From NCBI RefSeq assembly GCF_035084215.1, contig NC_090365.1, forward strand, positions 9,610,001 to 9,674,000: a stretch of 64,000 bases of DNA, given 5' to 3'. Under the pieces are notes generated by a model that had not been told where the DNA came from, did no database searches, and was given only the letters and a program-made list of their open reading frames with translations. The stretch is from Heptranchias perlo. Its lineage: Eukaryota. Positions 17,640 through 64,000 of the stretch are shown here, piece by piece; position 1 is the stretch's first letter, and each line of letters opens with the position of its first letter. Both the position numbers and the translations under genes were made by a program.

Positions 17640-19710
17640 TAGAAGAGATCAAAAAAGATAGTCATTTAAGATAGAATGGGGGGAGGTAATAAACTAATCA
17701 AACTTAGAGGATAAAACCCCTGTAATATTCAAAAGTTAAGGAAGAGATAGCAGAGGCACTTACATATATAAAAATTCATTAGAAAAGGGAATAGTGCCAG
17801 AGGACTGGCTAACAGCTAATGTGATTCCTATATTTAAAAAGGGAAATAGAACAAGTCCAGGGAACTAAAGATCAATTAGCTTAATGGCGGTGGTAGGAAA
17901 GATAATGGAATCCTTACTCAAAGATGTAATAGAAAAACATTTAGAAACAAGAAAATATAATAAAGAATAATTAGCACTGATTTCAGAAGGGAAGGTCGTG
18001 CTTGACCAACCTTACTGAATTCTTTGACAAAGGGTAGTGGACTCGGGTAATACAGTAGATGTAATATATTTGGATTTTCAAAGGCTTTCGATAAAGTACC
18101 CTATAGTAGATTCATGACTAAGGTCAGAGCTTGTGGAGTCCAGGGACATGTAGCAGCAAAATGGATACAAAAAAGTAGAGGTTAAGAGTGATTGCTCAGA
18201 CTGGCAAAAAGTGTGAAGTGGTGATCCACAAGGATCGATGCTGGGACCACTGTTCACCGTTTCCATAAACTGTTTGGAATTGGAAGTACAATTTCAATTT
18301 GTGGATGACACCAAATGGGGGGGTATAGTTAATACTGAGGAGGACTGTGACAAAGTACAAGAAGACATTAATAAACTTGCAGAATGGGTGTAATTGGCAA
18401 ATTAATTTTAACATAGATAACTGAGTTGGTACATTTTGGTAGGAAGAATGAGGCCACAATACTCCCTAAAAATGAGAGTCTAAATGGGGTAGAGGAGCAG
18501 TGGGATCTGGGATACACCAATCGATTAAAAATAGCAATGCAGGTTAAACGGCCATTAAAATACTAAGTACTAGGGTTCATTTCTAGAGGGAAAGAATTGA
18601 AAAGCAGAGGTTATGTTAAACTTATGTAGAACCTTCAAAAGCAAAATACTGCCAAGGCTGGAAATCTGAAATAGAAACAGAAAATGCTGGCAATACTCAG
18701 CAAGTCAGGCAGCATCTGTGGAGAAAGAATGAGTTAACGTTTCAGGTTGAAGACCCTTTGTCAGAACTAGAAGATTCAAGCTTAAATGGTTTTTAAGCAA
18801 ATACAGAGCCAGGGAAAGGTGGGGGAGGGAAGAACAAAAGGGAAGGTCTCTGGGGTGGAGGGCAGGAGTGATTAAATGACGCATGGGATGATGGTGCAAG
18901 GCAAGGAGGGTGGTAAAGAAACAAAAGATGGGTCTAGAGGAGCTGTAAATGGCAACATCAGAACCATTACCAGCACCTGCTGTCTGGAAAAATGGGAGCA
19001 GTGGTTATGATCTGAAGTTATCGAAATCAGTGAGTGCAGAAGGTTGTAAAGTGCCTAATCGTAAGATGAGGTGCAGTGTAAGAGGCCGAGGGAGTGGGAC
19101 TGGGAATTAAAACAGCAAGCAACCGGCAGGTCAGGGTCACGTTTTTGGACTGAGCGGAAGTGTTCAGCATAGAACCTTGGTTAGATCGCACTTGGAGTAC
19201 TGTGAACAGTTCTGGTCTCTATTATAAAAGGACTGGAGACGATGCAAAAAAATTTACTAGGATGACACCAGAACTCTGAGGTTATATATCAGGAAAGATT
19301 GAACAGGCTGGGGCTCTTTTCTCTGGGAAAGAAAAGACTGAGGGGTGACCTGATAGAGGTGTTTAAAATTATGAAAGGGTAGATGTAGAAGTTTCCACTT
19401 GCAGGGGAGACCAGAACTAGGGGCCATAAATATGAGTCACTAATAAATCCAATAGGGAATTCAAGAGAAACTTCTTTACCCAGAGTGGTTAGAATGTGGA
19501 ACTCGCTACCACAAGGAATGGTTGAGGTGAATAGCATAGATGCATTTAAGGGGAAGCTAGATAAACATGAGGGAGAAAGGAACAGAAGGATATGTTGATG
19601 GGATTAGATGAAGGGTGGGTGGTGGCTCCTGTGGAGCATAAATACTGGCATGGACCTGTTGGGCTGAATGGCCTGTTTCTGTGCTGTACATTATATATAA
19701 TTCTATGTAA
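17640..19710 (+). mobile_element. Degenerate CR1 LINE (RT region to 3' tail), interrupted by a nested insertion
   Basis: Frameshifted CR1 ORF2 motifs (PEDW..ANVIPIFKKG, LDFQ.AFDKVP, LV..HLEYC.QFWS) and a CR1-type tail. Confidence 0.85.
18636..19169 (-). mobile_element. Penelope-like fragment nested in CR1
   Basis: Flanked by TAGAACCTT at 18627-18635 and 19170-19178; minus strand reads AGTT-CTGACAA-stem-GAAACGTT-AACT, a degenerate hammerhead core. Confidence 0.65.
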
Positions 19711-22282: not shown

Positions 22283-22475
22283 TGATAAAATCAGTTTAAC
22301 TGGTACAACTGTGGCCTTTTTGTTTGAAGATTCAGTGGAAGGTCTTTTTGAGGAGCATGAGCTGAGTGCTGCTCTAACAGTCACATTAGTTTGGGTGGGT
22401 CTGGCTGACTCATTTCTCTTCCTACTTTCTGCTAGCCCCTCTCCCTCTTCCCACTTTGTGGAACAGTGACACAGT

Positions 22476-22598
22476 CCACACGGACTGCAGCGATTCAAGA
22501 AGGCGGCTCACCACCACCTTCTCGAGGGCAATTAGGGATGGGCAATAAATGCCGGCCTCGCCAGTGACGCCTACATCCCATAAGTGAATTTAAAAAAG
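22476..22598 (+). mobile_element. Short 3' tail copy of the LINE family at 60195-63529
   Basis: Near-identical to about 63408-63529 (CACACGGACTGCAGCG...GGGCAATTAGGGATGGGCAATAAATG). Confidence 0.9.
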
Positions 22599-35663: not shown

Positions 35664-36380
35664 TAATCCCACTGCCCCGCTCTCTCTCCATTACCCCGTA
35701 TCAATCCCAAACTAACCCCACTGCCCCGCTGTCTCTCCATTACCCCGTATCAATCCCAAACTAACCCCACTGCCCCGCTCTCTCCCCATAGCCCTGTATC
35801 AATCCCAAACTAACCCCACTGCCCCGCTCTCTCCCCATAGCCCTGTATCAATCCCAAACTAACCCCACTGCCTCGCTCTCTCCCCATAGCCCTGTATCAA
35901 TCCCAAACTAACCCCACTGCCCTGCGCTCTCCCCATTACCCCGTATCAATCCCAAACTAACCCCACTGCCCCGCTCTCTCCCCATAGCCCTGTATCAATC
36001 CCAAACTAACCCCACTGCCCCGCTCTCTCCCCATAGTCCTGTATCAATCCCAAACTAATCGCACTGACCCGCTCTCTCCCCATAGTCCTGTATCAATCCA
36101 AAACTAACCCCACTGCCCCGCTCTCTCCCCATAGCCCTGTATCAATCCCAAACTAACCCCACTGCCCCGCTCTCTCCCCATAGTCCTGTATCAATCCCAA
36201 ACTAACCCCACTGCCCCGCTCTCTCCCCATAGCCCTCTCCCCATAGTCCTGTATCAATCCCAAACTAATCGCACTGACCCGCTCTCTCCCCATAGTCCTG
36301 TATCAATCCAAAACTAATTGCACTGCCCCACTCTCTCCCCATAGCCCAGTATCAGTCCCAAACTAACCCCACTGCCCTGC
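35664..36380. repeat. 49-bp minisatellite (about 14 copies) derived from an antisense CR1 tail
   Basis: Unit CTAACCCCACTGCCCCGCTCTCTCCCCATAGCCCTGTATCAATCCCAAA, period 49, directly preceded by antisense CR1-tail sequence. Confidence 0.9.
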
Positions 36381-36587
36381 TGTTTTATCTTGAAATGTCC
36401 GTGATTTTGCCCCTCAGTCATGGGCACTTGTCTCCAACCAGAAGTCTATCAGGAGCCAAGTTGAGAAACACAGGCACCAAACTGTACAGAGTGTCTAATG
36501 GTGACAACTCAAACATTAAGGTGATTTGCCGATGGAAATATGTGTTCTGGTAAATAAACATTAATTATCCAGATGGAGGGAGCTTAT

Positions 36588-37530
36588 CATATTATAGAAT
36601 CATAGAAATTTACAGGACAGAAGGAGACCATTCGGCCCATCGTGTCTGTGCCGGCCAATAAAGAGACACCCAGCCTAATCCCACTTTCCAGCTCTTGGTC
36701 CGTAGCCTTGCCACTTTCCCTTGGATCCCATGGACTTTTACTTTTCCGACCAGTCTGCCATGTGAGACCTTGTCAAAAGCCTTGCTAAAATCCATGTAGA
36801 CTACATCAAACGCATTACCCTCATCAACCCTCCTTGTTACCTCCTCAAAAAATTCAATCAAGTTAGTCAGACATGACTTCCCCTTAACAAATCCATGCTG
36901 ACTGTCTTTGATTAATCCGTGCCTTTCTAAATGAAGATTAATTCTGTCCCTTGGAATTTTTTCCAATAATTTGCCCACCATCGAGGTTAGGCTGTCTGGC
37001 CTGTAATTACTCGGTCTATCCCTTTCTCCCTTTTTAAACAACAATACAACGTTAGCAGTCCTCCAGTCCTCCGGTTCCATGCCTGTATCTGGGAGGATTG
37101 GAAAATGATGGTCAGAGCCTCCGCTATTTCCTCCCGTACTTTTCTTAACAGCCTGAGATACACGGTAATTTATCTACTTCCAAAGATGCTAAACCCCTTA
37201 ATACTTCCTCTCTCATTATGTTTATCCCATTCAATATTTCATATTCCTCCTCCTTAATGTCTGCATTGTCTCCCTCTTTCTTGAAGACAGACACAAAGTA
37301 TTAAAAACCATACCCACATCTTCCGCCTCCACACACTGGTTACCTTTTTGGTATCTAATAGGCCCTACTCTTTCCTTAGTTATCCTCTTGTTCTTTATGT
37401 ATTTATAAAACATCTTTGGATTTTCCTTTATTTTACTTGCCAATATTTTTTCTTGTCCCCTCTTTGCCTTCCAAATTTCTTTTAATTTAATCCCTGCACT
37501 TACTGTGCTTCTCTAGGCTACCTGCAGTAT
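36588..37530 (-). mobile_element. Internally deleted CR1 LINE fragment
   Basis: ORFs 36610-37080 and 37231-37443 carry CR1 ORF2 motifs (PEDWRTANV, SQHGFVKGKSCLTNL, DFSKAFDKV) joined directly to the tail. Confidence 0.88.
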
Positions 37531-39869: not shown

Positions 39870-39918
39870 GTGAGTATGAAGCACACACTAGAGGTTGATG
39901 TGGTAGCTGGGTGGGCAG

Positions 39919-41423
39919 CCAGTTAGCTTAACATCTGTGGTGGGTAAAATTTTGGAGTCTATTATTAAGGAGACAGTAACGGAACATTTAGATAAGCATA
40001 ATTTAATAGGACAAAGTCAGCATGGCTTTATGAAGGGGAAGTCATGTCTGACAAATTTGCTTGAGTTCTTCGAGGATATAACGTATAGGGTGGATAAAGG
40101 GGAACCAGTGGACATAGTGTATTTAGACTTCCAGAAGGCATTCGACAAGGTGCCACATAAAAGATTATTACTTAAGATAAAAAATCACGGGATTGGGGGT
40201 AATATTCTGGCATGGGTGGAGGATTGGTTATCGAACAGGAAGCAGAGAGTTGGGATAAATGGTTCATTTTCGGACTGGCAACCAGTAACCAGTGGTGTTC
40301 CACAGGGGTCAGTGCTGGGTCCCCAAATCTTTACAATCTATATTAACGATTTGGAGGAGGGGACCGAGTGCAACATATCAAAATTTGCAGATGATACAAA
40401 GATGGGAGGGAAAGTAGAGAGTGAGGAGGACATAAAAAACCTGCAAGGGGATATAGACAGGCTGGGTGAGTGGGCGGAGATTTGGCAGATGCAATATAAT
40501 ATTGGAAAATGTGAGGTTATGCACTTTGGCAGGAAAAATCAGAGAGCAAGTTATTTTCTTAATGGCGAGAGACTGGAAAGTACTGCAGTACAAAGGGATC
40601 TGGGGGTCCTCGTGCAAGAAAATCAAAAAGTTGGTATGCAGGTGCAGCAGGTGATCAAGAAAGCCAACGGAATGTTGGCTTTTATTGCTAGGGGGATAGA
40701 ATATAAAAACAAGGAGGTATTGCTGCAGTTATATAAGGTATTGGTGAGACCGCACCTGGAATACTGCATACAGTTTTGGTCTCCATACTTAAGAAAAGAC
40801 ATACTTGCTCTCGAGGCAGTACAAAGAAGGTTCACTCGGTTAATCCCGGGGATGAGGGGGCGGACATATGAGGAGAGGTTGAGTAGATTGGGACTCTACT
40901 CATTGGAGTTCAGAAGAATGAGAGGCGATCTTATTGAAACATATAAGATTGTGAAGGGTCTTCATCGGGTGGATGCAGTAAGGATGTTCCCAAAGATGGG
41001 TGAAACTAGAACTAGGGGGCATAATCTTAGAATAAGGGGCTGCTCTTTCAAAACTGAGATGAGGAGAAACTTCTTCACTCAGAGGGTGGTAGGTCTGTGG
41101 AATTTGCTGCCCCAGGAAGCTGTGGAAGCTACATCATTAGATAAATTTAAAACAGAAATAGACAGTTTCCTAGAAGTAAAGGGAATTAGGGGTTATGGGG
41201 AGCGGGCAGGAAATTGGACATGAAGCTGAGTTCGGATCGGTCAATGCCCTGTGGGTGGCGGAGAGGGCCCAGGGGCTGTGTGGCCGGGTCCTGCTCCGAC
41301 TTCTTGTGTTCTTTAGATTTGTGGTTGGGATCAGATCAGCCATGATCTTATTGAATGGCGGAGCAGGCTCGAGGGGCCGATTGGCCTACTCCTGCTCCAA
41401 TTTCTTATGTTCTTATGTTCTTA
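39919..41423 (+). mobile_element. Young 5'-truncated CR1 LINE with uninterrupted RT C-terminal ORF (39937-41223)
   Basis: QHGFMKGKSCLTNL, DFQKAFDKV, GVPQGSVLGP, FADD, LVRPHLEYC motifs; ends in (TTCTTATG)n. Confidence 0.95.
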
Positions 41424-50344: not shown

Positions 50345-53093
50345 ATAGACAATCTATTTGGTTAAAATTAAGGAATGATGTGGAGATGCCGGAGATGGAC
50401 TGGGGTTGACAAATGTAAGGAATCTTACAACACCAGGTTATAGTCCAACTGTTTTATTTTAAAATCACCAGCTTTCGGAGGCTTTCTCCTTCGTCAGGTG
50501 AGTGTGGGACCACACTCACCTGACGAAGGAGAAAGCCTCGGAAAGCTGGTGATTTTAAAATAAAACAGTTGGACTATAACCTGGTGTTGTAAGATTCCTT
50601 ACAAGAATTAAGGAACAACACAAGAGTTATCATGCTACTGGGTGTATATAATAGGCCACTAAATAGTGGGAAAGAGATAGAGGAGCAAATTACAGAAAGA
50701 TGCAAGGACTATAGAGTAGTGATGATGGGGGACTTCAATTATCCCAATATAGACTGGGATAGCAACAATGTAAAGGGCAAAGAGGGGGAGGAATTTCTAA
50801 AATGTATACAAGAGAACTTTCTGGAACAGTGTGTTTCCAGCCCAACGAGGAAGGAAACAGTTCTAGATCTGGGGAAATGAAGTGGGGTAGGTGGAACATG
50901 TTTCAGTGGGGGAGCATTTGGGGAACAGTGATCATATATCATTAGTTTTAGAATAGTTATGGAAAAGGACAAGGAACAATCAAATGTGACAGTACTAAAC
51001 TGGAGGAGGGCTAATTTCATTGAGTTAAAAAGGGATCTGGCCCAGATGGATTGGAATCAAAAATTGGCAGGCAAAAAAATAATTGAACAATGGGAGGCCT
51101 TCAAGGAGGAGATGGTTTGGATACAGAGTAGACATATTACTACAAAGGTGGAAAGGAAGGGCATCCAAAGCTAGAGTTCCTTGGATGACTAAAGATATAG
51201 AAATTAAAATGAAACAGAAAAAGGAGGTTTATGATGAATGTAAGGTTCATAATACAGTAGAGAACCAGGCTGAATACAGAAAGTATAGAGATCTTTAAAA
51301 AAAAAGGAATGAGGGGCAAAGAGAAAATATGAGAATAGATTAGCAACTAACATAAAAGGGAACCCAAAAGTCTTTTGTAAACATAAATAGTCAAAGGAAG
51401 GGTGGGACCGATTCAGGGACAAAAAAGGTCATGTTGTGGAGGGCATGGCTGAGGTGTCTCTTCGCTAGAGATGCTGCCATTGTAGCAATATTGGATAGGA
51501 TAAAAATAGATGAAGAGGAAGTGCTTAAAAGATTTGCAGTATGCAAAGTACAAAAATCACCCAGTCCATATGGGATGCTTCCTAGGTTATTGAGAGAAGT
51601 ACGGGTGGAAATTGCAGAGGCTTTGGCCACAATCTTCCAATCCTACGTTAGATGTGGGGACGGTGCTGGACGATTGCAAATGTTACACCCCTGTTCAAAA
51701 AGGGGGAGGGGGATAAATCTGGCAATTACAGGCCATTCAGCCCAACGTCGGTGGTGGGGAAACTTTTAGAGACAATAATCCGGGGCAAAATTAATTGGCA
51801 CTTGGAAAAGTCTGGGCTAATAAATGAAAATCAGCCTGGATTTGTTAAAGGAAAATCATGTTTGACCAACTTGATTTGATTTCTTTGATGAAGTAACGGA
51901 GAGGGTTGATGAGGGTAGTGCGGTTTATGTGCATATGGACTTCCAAAAGATAAAGTACCACATAATAGACTTTGTTAGCAAAATTAAAGCCTGTGGGATT
52001 AAAGGGACAGTGGCAGTGTGGATACAAAATTGGCTAGGGGGCAGAGAGTAGTGGTGGTTGGTTATTTTTCAAACTGGAGGGAAGTATACAGTGGTGCTCC
52101 CCAGGGGTGTTGGGACCACTGCTCTTTTTGATTATATATTAATGACCTGGACTTGGGTATGGAGGATATAATTTCAAAGTTTGCAGATGACATGGAACTC
52201 GGAAATGTAGTAAACAATGTGGAGGATGGTAACTGACTTCAGGAGGACATAGACTCGTGAAATGGGCAGACGAGTGGCAGATGAAAATTAACGCAGATAA
52301 TTGTGAAGTGATACATTTTGGTGGGAAGAATGAGGAGATGCAATATAAATTAAATGGTACAATTTTAAAGGGGGTGCAGGAACAGAGAGACCTGGGGGTG
52401 CACATACACAAATCTTTGTAGGTGGCTGGACAAGCTGAGAAGACTTATTTTAAAAAGTGCATGGGATCCTAGGCTTTATTAAGAGGCATGGAGTACAAAA
52501 GCAAGGAAGTTATGCTAACCCTTTATAAAACACTGGTTAGGCCTCAGCTGGAGTAGTGTGTTCAATTCTGGCACCACACTTCAGGAAGGATGTCAAGGCC
52601 TTGGAGAGGGTGTAGAGGAGATTTACTAGAACGGTACCAGGGATGAGGGACTTCAGTTATGTGGAGAGATTGGAGAAGCTGGGATTGTTCTCCATGGAAC
52701 AGAGAAGGTTAAGGGGAGATTTGATGAGGTATCCAAAATCATGACTGGTTTTGATAGAGTAAATAAGGAGAAACTGTTTCCAGTGGCAGAAGATTCGGTA
52801 ACCAGAGGACACAGATTCAAGGTGATTGGCAAAAGAGCCAGAGGCGACATGAGGACACTTTTTTTGCACAGTGAGTTGTAATGATCTGGAATGCACTGCC
52901 CGAAAAGGTGGTGGAAGCAGATTCAATTCAATAGTAACTTTCCAAAGGGAATTAGATAAATACTTGAAGGGGAAAAACATTACAGGCCTATGGGGAAAGA
53001 GCTGGGGAATGGGACTTAATTGGATAGCTCTTTCAGATAGCTGACACAGGCACGTTGTGCTGAATGGCCTGCTCCTGTGCTGTATCTACTATG
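50345..53093 (+). mobile_element. Degenerate CR1 LINE ORF2 (endonuclease to tail)
   Basis: SIWLKLRNN, LLGVYNRP, MGDFNYPNIDW, GFVKGKSCLTNL motifs, frameshifted, followed by a CR1 tail. Confidence 0.88.
50376..50605. mobile_element. Penelope-like inverted-repeat insertion, same family as 7318-7531
   Basis: Arms 50414-50507 and 50510-50603 (94 bp, one mismatch); direct repeat AATTAAGGAA at 50366 and 50606; CTGACGA...GAAAGCT core. Confidence 0.72.
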
Positions 53094-60194: not shown

Positions 60195-63100
60195 GGGTAC
60201 GGTAGCATAGTGGTTATGTTACTGGGCTAGTAATCCAGAGGCCTAGACTAAAATCCAGAGTCATGAGTTCAAATCCCGCCACGGCAGCTGGCGAATTTAA
60301 ATTCAATTAATTAATTAAATTCAATTAATTAAATAAAAAAATCTGGAATTAAAATACTAGTATCAGTAATGATGGCCATGAAACTACCGGATTGTCGTAA
60401 AAACCCATCTGGTTCACTAATGTCCTTTAGGGAAGGAAGCCTGCCGCCCTTACCCAGTCTGGCCGATATGTGACTCCAGACCCACAGCAATGTGGTTGAT
60501 TCTTAATTGCCCTCTGAAATGGCCTAGCAAGCCACTCAGTTGTAAAATCTCGCTACGAAAAGTCATAATAAGAATAAAACCGGACGGACCACCCGGCATC
60601 GGACCACTAGGCACCGGACACGACAACGGCAAAACACCAAGCCCAGTCGATCCTGCAAGGTCCTCCTTACTAACATCTGGGGACTTGTGCCAAAATTGGG
60701 AGAGCTGTCCCACAGACTAGTCAAGCAACAGCCTGACATAGCCATACTCACAGAATCATATCTTTCAGCCAACGTCCCAGACTCTTCCATCACCATCCCT
60801 GGGTATGTCCTGTCCCACCGGCAGGACAGACCCACCAGAGGTGGCGGTACAGTGATATACAGTCAGGAGGGAGTGGCCCTGGGAGTCCTCAACATTGACT
60901 CTGGCCCCCATGAAATCTCATGGCATCAGGTCAAACATGGGCAAGGAAACCTCCTGCTGATTACCACCTACCGTCCTCCCTCAGCTGATGAATCAGTCCT
61001 CCTCCATGTTGAACACCACTTGGAGGAAGCACTGAGGGTAGCAAGGGCACAAAATGTACTCTGGGTGGGGGACTTCAATGTCCATCACCAAGAGTGGCTC
61101 GGTAGCACCTCTACTGACCGAGCTGGCCGAGTCCTGAAGGACATAGCTGCTAGACTGGGCCTGCGGCAGGTGGTGAGCGAACCAACACGAGGGAAAAACT
61201 TACTTGACCTCGTCCTCACCAATCTACCTGTCGCAAATGCATCTGTCCATGACAGTATTGGTAGGAGTGACCACCGCACAGTCCTCGTGGAGATGAAATC
61301 CCGTCTTCGCACTGAGGACACCATCCAACGTGTTGTGTGGCACTACCACCGTGCTAAATGGGCTAGATTCAGAACAGATCTAGCAGCTCAAAACTGGGCA
61401 TCCATGAGGCGCTGTGGGCCATCAGCAGCAGCAGAATTGTATTCCAGCACAATCTGTAACCTCATGGCCCGGCATATTCCTCACTCTACCATTACCAACA
61501 AGCCAGGGGATCAACCCTGGTTCAATGAGGAGTGTAGAAGAGCATGCCAGGAGCAGCACCAGGCGTACCTAATAATGAGGTGCCAAGCTGGTGAAGCTAC
61601 AACTCAGGACTACATGCATGCTAAACAGCGGAAGCAACATGCTATAGACAGAGCTAAGCGATTCCACAACCAACGGATCAGATCAAAGCTCTGCAGTCCT
61701 GCCACATCCAGTCGTGAATGGTGGTGGACAATTAAACAACTAACGGGAGGAGGAGGCTCTGCAAACATCCCCATTCTCAATGATGGCGGAGTCCAGCACG
61801 TGAGTGCAAAAGACAAGGCTGAAGCGTTTGCAACCATCTTCAGCCAGAAGTGCCGAGTGGATAATCCATCTCAGCCTCCTCCCGATATCCCCACCATCAC
61901 GGAAGCCAGTCTTCGGCCAATTCGATTCACTCCACGTGATGTCAAGAAACGGCTGAGTGCACTGGATACAGCAAAGGCTATGGGCCCCGACAACATCCCA
62001 GCTGTAGTGCTGAAGACTTGTGCTCCAGAACTAGCTGCGCCTCGAGCCAAGCTGTTCCAGTACAGCTACAACACTGGCATCCACCCGACAATGTGGAAAA
62101 TTGCCCAGGTATGTCCTGTCCACAAAAAGCAGGACAAATCCAATCCGGCCAATTACCGCCCCATCAGTCTACTCTCAATCATCAGCAAAGTGATGGAAGG
62201 TGTCGTCGACAGTGCTATCAAGCGGCACTTACTCACCAATAACCTGCTCACCGATGCTCAGTTTGGGTTCCGCCAGGACCACTCGGCTTCAGACCTCATT
62301 ACAGCCTTGGTCCAAACATGGACAAAAGAGCTGAATTCCAGAGGTGAGGTGAGAGTGACTGCCCTTGACATCAAGGCAGCATTTGACCGAGTGTGGCACC
62401 AAGGAGCCCTAGTAAAATTGAAGTCAATGGGAATCAGGGGGAAAACTCTCCAGTGGCTGGAGTCATACCTGGCGCAAAGGAAGATGGTAGTGGTTGTTGG
62501 AGGCCAGTCATCTCAGCCCCAGGGCATTGCTGCAGGAGTTCCTCAGGGCAGTGTCCTTGGCCCAACCATCTTCAGCTGCTTCATCAATGACCTTCCCTCC
62601 ATCATAAGGTCAGAAATGGGGATGTTCGCTGATGACTGCACATTGTTCAGTTCCATTCGCAACCCCTCAGATAATGAAGCAGTCCGAGCCTGCATGCAGC
62701 AAGACCTGGACAACATCCAGGCTTGGGCTCATAAGTGGCAAGTAACATTTGCGCCAGATAAGTGCCAGGCAATGACCATCTCCAACAAGAGAGAGTCTAA
62801 CCACCTCCCCTTGACATTCAACGGCATTACCATCGCCGAATCCCCCACCATCAACATCCTGGGGGTCACCATTGACCAGAAACTTAACTGGACCAGCCAT
62901 ATAAATACTGTGGCTACGAGAGCAGGTCAGAGGCTGGGTATTCTGCGGCGAGTGACTCACCTCCTGACTCCCCAAAGCCTTTCCACCATCTACAAGGCAC
63001 AAGTCAGGAGTGTGATGGAATACTCTCCACTTGCCTGGATGAGTGCAGCTCCAACAACACTCAAGAAGCTCGACACCATCCAAGATAAAGCAGCCCGCTT

Positions 63101-63529
63101 GATTGGCACCCCATCCACCACCCTAAACATTCACTCCCTTCACCACCGGCGCACTGTGGCTGCAGTGTGCACCATCCACAGGATGCACTGCAGCAACTCG
63201 CCAAGGCTTCTTCGACAGCACCTCCCAAACCCGCGACCTCTACCACCTAGAAGGACAAGGGCAGCAGGCGCATGGGAACAACACCACCTGCACGTTCCCC
63301 TCCAAGTCACACACCATCCCGACTTGGAAATATATCGCCGTTCCTTCATTGTCGCTGGGTCAAAATCCTGGAACTCCCTTCCTAACAGCATTGTGGGAGA
63401 ACCGTCACCACACGGACTGCAGCGGTTCAAGAAGGCGGCTCACCACCACCTTCTCGAGGGCAATTAGGGATGGGCAATAAATGCCGGCATTGCCAGCGAC
63501 GCCCACATCCCGTGAACGAATAAAAAAAA
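60195..63529 (+). mobile_element. Apparently full-length single-ORF non-LTR retrotransposon (CR1/L2 group) with tRNA-like SINE-type head
   Basis: A box TAGCATAGTGG at 60203, B box GTTCAAATC at 60267, intact APE-RT ORF, 3' tail shared with copies at 22.5, 26.5 and 32.7 kb, A-rich end. Confidence 0.9.
60687..63467 (+). CDS. Retrotransposon APE endonuclease-reverse transcriptase; frame open from 60546 with no AUG before 61293
   Basis: EN motifs (TNIWGL just upstream, LTESYL, TTYRPP, GDFNVH, LDLVLT, SDH) and RT motifs (NYRPISLL, QFGFR, DIKAAFDRV, GVPQGSVLGP, FADD); 926 codons without a stop. Confidence 0.92.
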   Translation: MPKLGELSHRLVKQQPDIAILTESYLSANVPDSSITIPGYVLSHRQDRPTRGGGTVIYSQEGVALGVLNIDSGPHEISWHQVKHGQGNLLLITTYRPPSADESVLLHVEHHLEEALRVARAQNVLWVGDFNVHHQEWLGSTSTDRAGRVLKDIAARLGLRQVVSEPTRGKNLLDLVLTNLPVANASVHDSIGRSDHRTVLVEMKSRLRTEDTIQRVVWHYHRAKWARFRTDLAAQNWASMRRCGPSAAAELYSSTICNLMARHIPHSTITNKPGDQPWFNEECRRACQEQHQAYLIMRCQAGEATTQDYMHAKQRKQHAIDRAKRFHNQRIRSKLCSPATSSREWWWTIKQLTGGGGSANIPILNDGGVQHVSAKDKAEAFATIFSQKCRVDNPSQPPPDIPTITEASLRPIRFTPRDVKKRLSALDTAKAMGPDNIPAVVLKTCAPELAAPRAKLFQYSYNTGIHPTMWKIAQVCPVHKKQDKSNPANYRPISLLSIISKVMEGVVDSAIKRHLLTNNLLTDAQFGFRQDHSASDLITALVQTWTKELNSRGEVRVTALDIKAAFDRVWHQGALVKLKSMGIRGKTLQWLESYLAQRKMVVVVGGQSSQPQGIAAGVPQGSVLGPTIFSCFINDLPSIIRSEMGMFADDCTLFSSIRNPSDNEAVRACMQQDLDNIQAWAHKWQVTFAPDKCQAMTISNKRESNHLPLTFNGITIAESPTINILGVTIDQKLNWTSHINTVATRAGQRLGILRRVTHLLTPQSLSTIYKAQVRSVMEYSPLAWMSAAPTTLKKLDTIQDKAARLIGTPSTTLNIHSLHHRRTVAAVCTIHRMHCSNSPRLLRQHLPNPRPLPPRRTRAAGAWEQHHLHVPLQVTHHPDLEIYRRSFIVAGSKSWNSLPNSIVGEPSPHGLQRFKKAAHHHLLEGN

Positions 63530-63821
63530 GGAATGCAGAAACCGTGACTGATATCCTCCCTCACTCTCTTGTGGAGATGGAAACTTGTATTCTAAACACT
63601 CGAAGCTTGTCAGTTTGGTAGTTAGTCAGCCACATTACCCGTGACTGAGTTTTTAAAGATCGGGAGTTGTGCACTTTTTTTTCAGAATGGATAAGTTAAC
63701 AGAACTGGATTTCTCAGTATCTAATGTCTTGGAATTATTCTTCATGCTCTTCTTTGAACTGAACTTTCAGTAGTAGGATTTGCCTATAATAATCTTTTAA
63801 TACAGTACATTGATTATGCAG

Positions 63822-63960
63822 AATTTCAACCAGCTGAAATAAAGCAAGAGCCTGTGGATCAAACTGAGATCAAACAGGAGACACAGCTGAGCAGGAAGAG
63901 GCCATATGCTGACCAAGGCCATGGATATTATGAATACAGAGAGGACAGAAGTTACAGCCG
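63822..63960 (+). CDS. HNRNPUL1: hnRNP U-like 1 exon 3 (acceptor uncertain, alternative at 63771)
   Basis: EFQPAEIKQE...LSRKRPYADQGHGYYEYREDR, resembling human [21 protein letters not shown]; donor GTGAGT at 63961. Confidence 0.8.
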
Positions 63961-64000
63961 GTGAGTAACACTTGCTGCTGCTGCTGCTCCTCCCCCTCTA

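Follow-up and report, generated by a model that had tools for sequence, protein, structure and literature searches.

The window analysed here, a 64,000-nt stretch of Heptranchias perlo contig NC_090365.1 (positions 9,610,001 to 9,674,000 of the forward strand), contains a retroelement that combines a tRNA-derived head, as known from short interspersed nuclear elements (SINEs), with a single long open reading frame (ORF) for an endonuclease (EN) and a reverse transcriptase (RT), as known from long interspersed nuclear elements (LINEs) of the Zenon type. The RT frame has no AUG upstream of the end of the endonuclease domain. The observation is real, family-wide and unusual: a SINE-type promoter stands on a known LINE clade, and the start of translation, which is probably non-AUG judging from the letters, is unexplained. 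The features of the element are listed below in window coordinates; "rows" are published consensus sequences, described further on.

60195..63529, + strand, whole element: tRNA-headed, single-ORF LINE of Zenon type, 3,335 nt (contig loose ends; published consensus rows)
60195..60290, + strand, tRNA-derived head, putative type 2 RNA polymerase III (Pol III) promoter (sequence; present in 7/7 elasmobranch rows)
60203..60213, + strand, A box, starting at base 9 counted from the 5′ end, its position in tRNA (sequence; recognisable by eye in 7/7 rows)
60222..60238, + strand, anticodon arm of the head (12/15 bases match the apical hairpin 60520-60534)
60265..60276, + strand, B box (sequence; recognisable by eye in 7/7 rows, in stingray one letter short)
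60390..60506, + strand, conserved leader body: stem 60429-60437/60447-60455, hairpin 60457-60481 and GCAA-loop hairpin 60482-60495 (folding; rows)
60490..60720, + strand, 76-aa upstream ORF (uORF) in the +1 frame, AUG inside the GCAA hairpin (no Pfam match)
60507..60545, + strand, terminal leader hairpin with a 7-nt anticodon-like loop CUAGCAA at 60524-60530 (folding; rows)
60545..60551, + strand, variable spacer in which every column changes (7 nt, but 6 nt in whale shark)
60552..60555, + strand, GCUA, complement of loop bases 60525-60528 (UAGC) and candidate codon mimic (unvarying in the window and 7/7 rows)
60552..60659, + strand, N-terminal extension in the RT frame, rich in Arg/Lys and free of Met (K+R 32.5%)
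60660..61290, + strand, APE endonuclease domain: N43, E70, Y142, D176/N178, SDH 241-243 (PF03372, PF14529; conserved columns; alignment with L1 ORF2p)
62127..62873, + strand, RT domain with FADD motif (PF00078, E 3.9e-39)
63468..63529, + strand, 3′ untranslated region (UTR) with a stem-loop, AATAAA and an A8 tail at 63522-63529 (sequence; common to three 5′-truncated copies in the window)

Boundary and depth data come from contigs of four runs (4 of the 22 listed), whose depth is not to be equated with copy number. Loose ends before 60194/60195 in three of the four runs (163 + 295, 653 and 187 + 492 contigs) give a sharp 5′ boundary, loose ends behind 63529 are found in all four, and contig depth climbs toward the 3′ end as in a 5′-truncated LINE. 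Across the junction of leader and ORF the depth is unbroken in the two closest organisms (4.0M at 60439 versus 2.6M at 60550 in one, 15k versus 18k in the other), and in a fourth organism one contig covers 60357-60579 without gaps. Gene models of horn shark (P0022) and whale shark (P0046, P0064) also hold leader-derived and EN-derived residues together and contiguous. No target-site duplication was found adjoining the element. A probable host exon at ~63820-63961, the peptide of which presumably recalls hnRNP-U-like proteins, ends at GTGAGT on the + strand, so that the element is read as a sense-oriented intronic insertion.

APE endonuclease and RT share a single ORF, as defines Zenon, and ORF1 is absent, the longest AUG ORF of the 350-nt leader being the overlapping 76-aa frame. 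The tail is poly-A (A8), with A-rich ends on the three truncated copies. Published elasmobranch rows of 3,244-3,314 nt have the same 5′ end as the window element. In an RT tree of 43 rows the element stands apart from the CR1 of the window; since this tree holds no named Zenon, the label is based on the by-eye match of the 5′ 400 nt with Zenon-labelled rows together with the architecture. The nearest named proteins are from sharks, a search of viral, metagenome and prokaryote collections gave no DNA of relatives, and the ESM Atlas returned generic EN-RT clusters only. Among 32 listed ORF variants, a selected subset, 15 were synonymous against 28.5% expected (P=0.02), a weak signal of purifying selection. 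The best reading is that of a young, intact copy of an elasmobranch Zenon LINE, autonomous and with a SINE-like build that has the gene inside.

An earlier note on this stretch had claimed that the RT frame opens after a TAA at 60543-60545 and that initiation at an AUG would remove the endonuclease, and this description was borne out. The frame is open for 973 codons, to 63467; it encodes motif I (VLLTNIWGL, 60660-60686) upstream of the GTG at 60687, and its first ATG lies at 61293 (aa 250), past the SDH motif at 61266-61274. In a profile search with 11 sequences, motif I and the catalytic Glu align with N14 and E43 of L1 ORF2p, so that initiation at either GTG 60687 or ATG 61293 would truncate the endonuclease, and the true start must precede 60660. 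The 76-aa AUG ORF of the note is likewise present at 60490-60720, overlapping and with the RT frame at −1, and this copy indeed has no canonical slippery heptamer, though there are two one-mismatch sites, at 60573 and 60690. At the ORF's own Met rate a first stretch of 249 Met-free codons has P=0.003, and among distant homologues 6/113 have a Met-free EN domain. The N-terminal peptide recurs in the same frame in the whale shark proteins P0064 and P0021, and basic extensions are also found in P0039 and P0042. A similar short basic motif opens the N-terminal extension of the distant relative P0044.

Seven published elasmobranch consensus rows, from white shark, stingray, whale shark, catshark and dogfish (the last with rows 908, 909 and 910), were compared by eye over the first 400 nt of each (supplement of PMC13343379); Table S3 of that source gives denominators of 59 to 2,313 copies across the six legible rows. 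The "top ORF2 length" values of that table were given no weight on the AUG question, as the text on them names no ORF mode. The same tRNA-like head and leader open all seven, and three hagfish and coelacanth rows have neither in their first 400 nt. The earlier note would have given way to an in-frame consensus AUG that this copy had lost, or to a 1-nt indel fusing the uORF to the RT frame, and both are largely absent. As far as the white shark, stingray, whale shark and catshark rows are visible, they contain no in-frame AUG (dogfish row 909 is the exception) and no fusing indel, and between 60490 and 60690 no 1-nt indel makes up ≥15% of depth in either of the two closest organisms. Motif I is reached by the stingray row alone; those of white shark, whale shark and catshark end ~30 nt short, a gap bridged by P0064 and P0021 of whale shark and by the consensus of loose ends over 60637-60666. 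The missing in-frame AUG is a family trait rather than the decay of a single copy.

The A and B boxes of the head were called with the consensus of these boxes, and the head may originate from tRNA-Ser. Its Rfam tRNA match is weak (13.6 bits, E 9.8), with nothing at the gathering threshold; ARAGORN called no tRNA at the head, and folding did not predict a cloverleaf. Between head and leader body lies an AT-rich tandem duplication (60297-60337; 14-18 nt, shorter in published rows) with T runs of at most 3.

The sense strand is free of TTTT over 3,531 nt, the longest such stretch on either strand of the window (the next is 1,846). The element has 8 TTT against 27.7 (mononucleotide) and 18.3 (dinucleotide) expected, and the ORF has 6 against 16.3 under synonymous shuffling (P=0.0005), where AAA, CCC and GGG are not depleted. 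T4 and TVTTT, the minimal terminators of Pol III (motifs and their efficiencies as given in PMC8466645), occur once on the sense strand and 28 times on the antisense strand; in four neighbouring CR1 pieces, which are older and richer in T, there are 30 in 4,016 nt. Phe and Leu are lower than in all 34 long homologues (34/34), which does not hold for Ile, Lys and Asn; the distant relatives P0039, P0043 and P0053 are likewise low in Phe (2.4-2.9%). The 3′ UTR contains no Pol III terminator, and the first T4 downstream is at 63650. Depletion of T runs on the sense strand is what Pol III read-through would need, and in our judgement the whole 3.3 kb is probably transcribed by Pol III from the head. 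The earlier note had proposed a Pol III transcript; the boxes and the T-run depletion now give this independent support, while transcription itself remains a prediction.

The conserved leader measures ~150 nt. In its body, pair probabilities of 0.92-0.99 were obtained for the two hairpins and for 60433-60436/60448-60451, and row variation falls mostly in loops. The pair 60433/60451 is A-U in the window, G-C in whale shark and G-U in stingray (by eye), i.e., one compensatory and one wobble change. An A-U to G-C compensation at 60486/60491 was not counted, as it occurs in a single gene model (P0029) and all consensus rows have A-U. The terminal hairpin is predicted with pair probabilities of 0.92-1.0 for its inner two stems and 0.5-0.7 for the outer one, where 60507/60545 shows a U-A/A-U swap and is mismatched in whale shark and dogfish. 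This hairpin includes an in-frame AUG-GCC-UAG (60519-60527) and the TAA, and 60508-60544 is unvarying in 6/7 rows save for a bulged base in stingray, row 910 being without letters there. Its apex resembles the anticodon arm of the head, a level of match (12/15) reached at three + strand sites of the window, two of which are the arms themselves; in the predicted fold of the whole leader the arm of the head is not formed.

Behind the hairpin, conservation breaks off and returns abruptly. Just upstream of GCU a stop is tolerated (TAA versus TAT/TAC), as is a 1-nt change in length, and a 1-nt deletion at 60550 makes up 20% and 17% of depth in two runs, with a diverged loose end in one. The island that follows consists of exactly the four loop-complementary bases, the A of which is kept even where the Thr codon becomes Lys (the codon after GCU is ACG in the window, ACA or AAA elsewhere). 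Variable spacer, tolerated stop and the whale shark length change, followed by an invariant GCUA, together bracket the start at or after 60552. GCU lies in the RT frame in the window and in white shark, stingray, whale shark and catshark (4/5 species). Such an in-frame pattern arose in 0.3% of 20,000 shuffles and, frame ignored, in ~3% per 86 nt of the window, figures to be read with the pattern having been defined post hoc, after it was seen.

The leader carries nine AUGs. That of the uORF is kept in 7/7 rows, and its ORF stops after 25, 25 and 27 aa in three of them (by eye); an out-of-frame AUG ORF of at least 76 aa appears in 6.8% of 2,000 leader shuffles, which is near chance, and from its letters the uORF is probably incidental. 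A +1-frame AUG at or near 60574, which would open a ~48-aa overlapping peptide (60574-60720), is present in 6/7 rows, the window copy having ATA. AUG 60519 is in frame and meets a UAG stop in 6/7 rows, the seventh being without those letters.

Short derivatives of the element also retain the head. Of 15 joints listed (9,985 further ones are unlisted), six link 60514-60547 to 63426-63465 with various breakpoints, two of them seen in 4/4 runs, and in some of these forms letters of the long form's spacer persist. Internal deletion is the simplest account of them, and since they keep the Pol III head they are read as SINEs. Persaeus has been derived from a lepidopteran Zenon by internal deletion (according to PMC6740152).

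The best overall explanation of these data, to which we give an even chance, is that of a Pol III-transcribed autonomous LINE with a non-AUG start, possibly by way of a mimic resembling pseudoknot I (PKI) of the internal ribosome entry sites (IRESs) that viruses carry. Pol III would transcribe the full 3.3 kb from the tRNA head, and ribosomes would enter the uncapped RNA via the leader structure instead of scanning past nine AUGs, a step we somewhat favour. The anticodon-like loop would then pair with GCU(A) at 60552 as a pseudoknot and set the frame without Met-tRNAi, which the letters suggest only tentatively, so that the protein would begin at or just after Ala-Thr. Internal deletions that retain head, leader and tail would yield the SINE-like non-autonomous copies. 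A fuller version, with no Pol II, no canonical initiation and a hairpin derived from the tRNA arm that drives a factor-independent, methionine-free start, appears doubtful; if true, it would be a chromosomal counterpart of the dicistrovirus intergenic region (IGR) IRES, and a living intermediate in which SINE bodies can serve as ribosome-binding leaders of Pol III LINEs.

Several points weigh against this explanation. The leader is no more stable than shuffles (z −0.10 and 0.33), so that of the suggestion in the earlier note that the body at 60370-60545 is IRES-like, a specific candidate (the anticodon-like hairpin with its in-frame GCU) has emerged and superior folding has not. The helix between loop and GCUA would be only 3-4 bp; its pairs are constant in the consensus rows and hence give no covariation, and two whale shark gene models with Gln at the UAG would lose the fourth pair. 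Its register is ambiguous, for if the 3′-most CUA were the codon mimic the frame would be +1, a frame that closes within four codons in stingray. Neither PKII nor PKIII was found, in a search that was not exhaustive for longer-range options, and no IRES family was among 11 Rfam matches up to E 10 from a library that may lack newer subtypes. On the side of transcription, the absence of TTTT is by itself marginal (P=0.048-0.14 with codon-based nulls, 0.06 with dinucleotides), CCC and GGG, too, fall below what dinucleotide shuffles give, and one TCTTT is left at 60761 with its first T at a synonymous site. The run comparison covers 40 listed substitution rows, with 296 further ones unlisted. Finally, the dogfish rows diverge: in row 909 the linker AUG shares the frame of the codons that precede motif I, and the frame of GCU is closed; row 908 lacks one base in the stretch from GCU to the following anchor; and row 910 has GCU in frame up to a gap of five letters immediately ahead of motif I. 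As rows 909 and 910 are short and without conserved letters, the dogfish rows give no verdict on the frame. A PKII candidate, AGGG 60429-60432 with CCCU 60510-60513, was rejected, its pair probability in the hairpin being 0 and its pairing in conflict with the covariation at 60433/60451.

Two alternatives that retain an AUG are about equally improbable in our view. Initiation could take place in the +1 frame, at the linker AUG (~60574) or that of the uORF (60490), followed by −1 recoding before 60660, or active master copies could carry an indel that brings the linker AUG into the RT frame. The near-universal linker AUG speaks for this, being in frame in dogfish row 909 and in whale shark gene model P0064, as do the uORF AUG of all seven rows and, farther downstream in white shark, stingray and catshark, a heptamer of the right register with one mismatch; unlisted variant rows might moreover hold the base that makes the linker AUG in the window's own family. 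The window copy, however, has ATA at the linker site and no canonical heptamer, the early stops close the uORF in three rows, and the uORF of whale shark is in another frame past the spacer. Row 909 is weak support (2,886 nt, 0/396 intact ORFs, a low-confidence letter at the join), the stingray row, visible through motif I, has its linker AUG out of frame, and the invariant GCUA island would be left unexplained.

Translation could instead start at AUG 60519 with readthrough of UAG-CAA (60525), or proceed by termination and reinitiation at the near-cognate ACG 60555, as in L1, SART1 and calicivirus. AUG-GCC-UAG is conserved in 6/7 rows, the UAG is the sole stop before the ORF in white shark, stingray and catshark, and AUG-tolerant reinitiation has a precedent (described in PMC5972666). 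Yet a second stop, TAA, is present in the window and three dogfish rows (in neither of the two closest organisms does A>T at its third position reach 15%), the 6-nt spacer of whale shark shifts AUG 60519 out of frame, and the reinitiation codon ACG is ACA or AAA in four rows. Eight AUGs precede AUG 60519, and conservation of the AUG and UAG is explicable by hairpin structure alone.

Slightly less probable still is that the head serves short derivatives only, or is a relic, and that the protein is made from capped Pol II RNA by way of host read-through, a cryptic promoter or a splicing event through which an AUG is gained. A length of 3.3 kb is very long for Pol III, the copy sits sense in an intron, and the TCTTT at 60761 would fit as well. 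Other Zenons are without a Pol III promoter (PMC6740152, in the part consulted; hagfish and coelacanth rows). Against this stand the T- and strand-specific depletion along the coding region, the 5′ boundary exactly at the tRNA +1 position, and nine leader AUGs that disfavour scanning; no GT-AG joint from leader to EN is among the 15 joints listed. That the element is a one-off SINE-LINE chimera, a nested insertion or a copy whose AUG has been lost is very improbable and already contradicted by the same architecture in seven published consensus rows, even though template-switch chimeras are common among retroposons (according to PMC4494074 and PMC7245038) and linker depth drops steeply in two of four runs (1.0k and 4.1k at 60550), a fall to be expected where the linker diverges and the cut-off is 85%.

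Elsewhere in the window there are three 5′-truncated copies of the element (22473-22598, +; 26485-26899, +; 32648-32768, −), 82-96% identical and with A-rich tails, of which that at 26485 starts with a short duplication of its own 5′ end. Decayed pieces of CR1-type LINEs (17764-18390; 36712-37089, −; 39916-40950; 50596-52571), with 20-33% protein identity, served as controls for the T runs. GC-rich minisatellites with 32-49-nt units occupy 1-169, 25192-25673, 25900-26323, 28649-29085, 33285-33572 and 35663-36381. Shark gene models named for unrelated genes (P0001, P0007, P0011, P0012, P0014, P0022 and P0027) hold pieces of the ORF, either by exonisation or by annotation error.

By definition, SINEs are Pol III parasites that encode no protein, and LINEs are coding elements whose transcripts come from Pol II (in R2, Pol I). 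The Zenon family is known; no description of its head, of the depletion of T runs, of the lack of an AUG or of the terminal hairpin was found in the open-access PubMed Central and bioRxiv literature searched, a scope that lies outside Repbase and Dfam. A high-copy LINE with a tRNA promoter, purged terminators and no in-frame AUG would bridge the two classes and, if the proposed transcription is correct, would be a natural protein-coding Pol III transcript. Two questions become testable: what keeps the bodies of SINEs so conserved (in this case the autonomous partner would use the body as its translation leader), and whether factorless initiation of the IGR type extends beyond RNA viruses. ORF annotation based on AUG will drop the endonuclease of such elements.

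Among known systems, the CR1-group Zenon elements are closest (PMC13343379, in the part consulted; CR1-Zenon of whale shark, 10.1101/443036), sharing a single EN-RT ORF, the lack of ORF1, poly-A and ~3.3 kb; absence of ORF1 and a poly-A tail are reported there for the Zenon elements of five elasmobranch species, and the first 400 nt agree by eye with the published elasmobranch rows. In the main text of PMC13343379 the terms "tRNA", "start codon", "promoter" and "methionine" occur 0 times. The lepidopteran Zenon derivatives differ in being without a Pol III promoter (PMC6740152, as far as consulted). With tRNA-derived SINEs (SINE2; SacSINE1 and HE1 of sharks) and bipartite short internally deleted elements (SIDEs; Persaeus, Bov-A) the element shares a tRNA head with A and B boxes, a conserved body and a LINE tail, but SINEs are non-coding, and here the head joins a 3,335-nt element with a 973-codon open frame, which is neither short nor non-coding. 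A reading of the body as that of SacSINE1, with a Deu domain, was dropped, as the Deu alignment shares only few words with it by eye, and no match by eye was found to the Deu, Meta and UCON3 alignments (supplement of PMC7245038).

R2 differs from the element in being a Pol I co-transcript freed by a ribozyme like that of hepatitis delta virus (HDV) and in having a different endonuclease, whereas the promoter here is internal and tRNA-like; no Rfam ribozyme family matches the element. To our knowledge R2 has no conserved AUG. As a precedent, drawn in the earlier note, R2 is right in outline, being an uncapped Pol I co-transcript with a ribozyme thought to act as an IRES; both R2 and L1Tc make protein from an RNA that has no cap and whose structured 5′ region is regarded as IRES-like, as the element would (PMC6765202, in the part consulted).

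Despite the fit in complementarity, frame and invariance, the leader is not classed as a type 6 (dicistrovirus IGR) IRES. Type 6 IRESs have PKII with L1.1 loops and, in most subtypes, PKIII, neither of which was identified in the leader, which further differs in its 3-4 bp helix, in having no Rfam match and in belonging to a cellular mobile element instead of an RNA virus; as far as the accessible text of two IRES surveys goes (10.1101/2024.04.17.590008, PMC12221177), retrotransposons are not mentioned. With domain 3/PKI of these IRESs the leader nonetheless shares a hairpin with an anticodon-like loop, a variable spacer and a complement at the start of an AUG-less ORF. Its size is similar to the 120-193 nt given for type 6 (10.1101/2024.04.17.590008), and ACA, which follows GCU in several rows, is a common predicted first codon in type 6f IRESs (PMC12221177).

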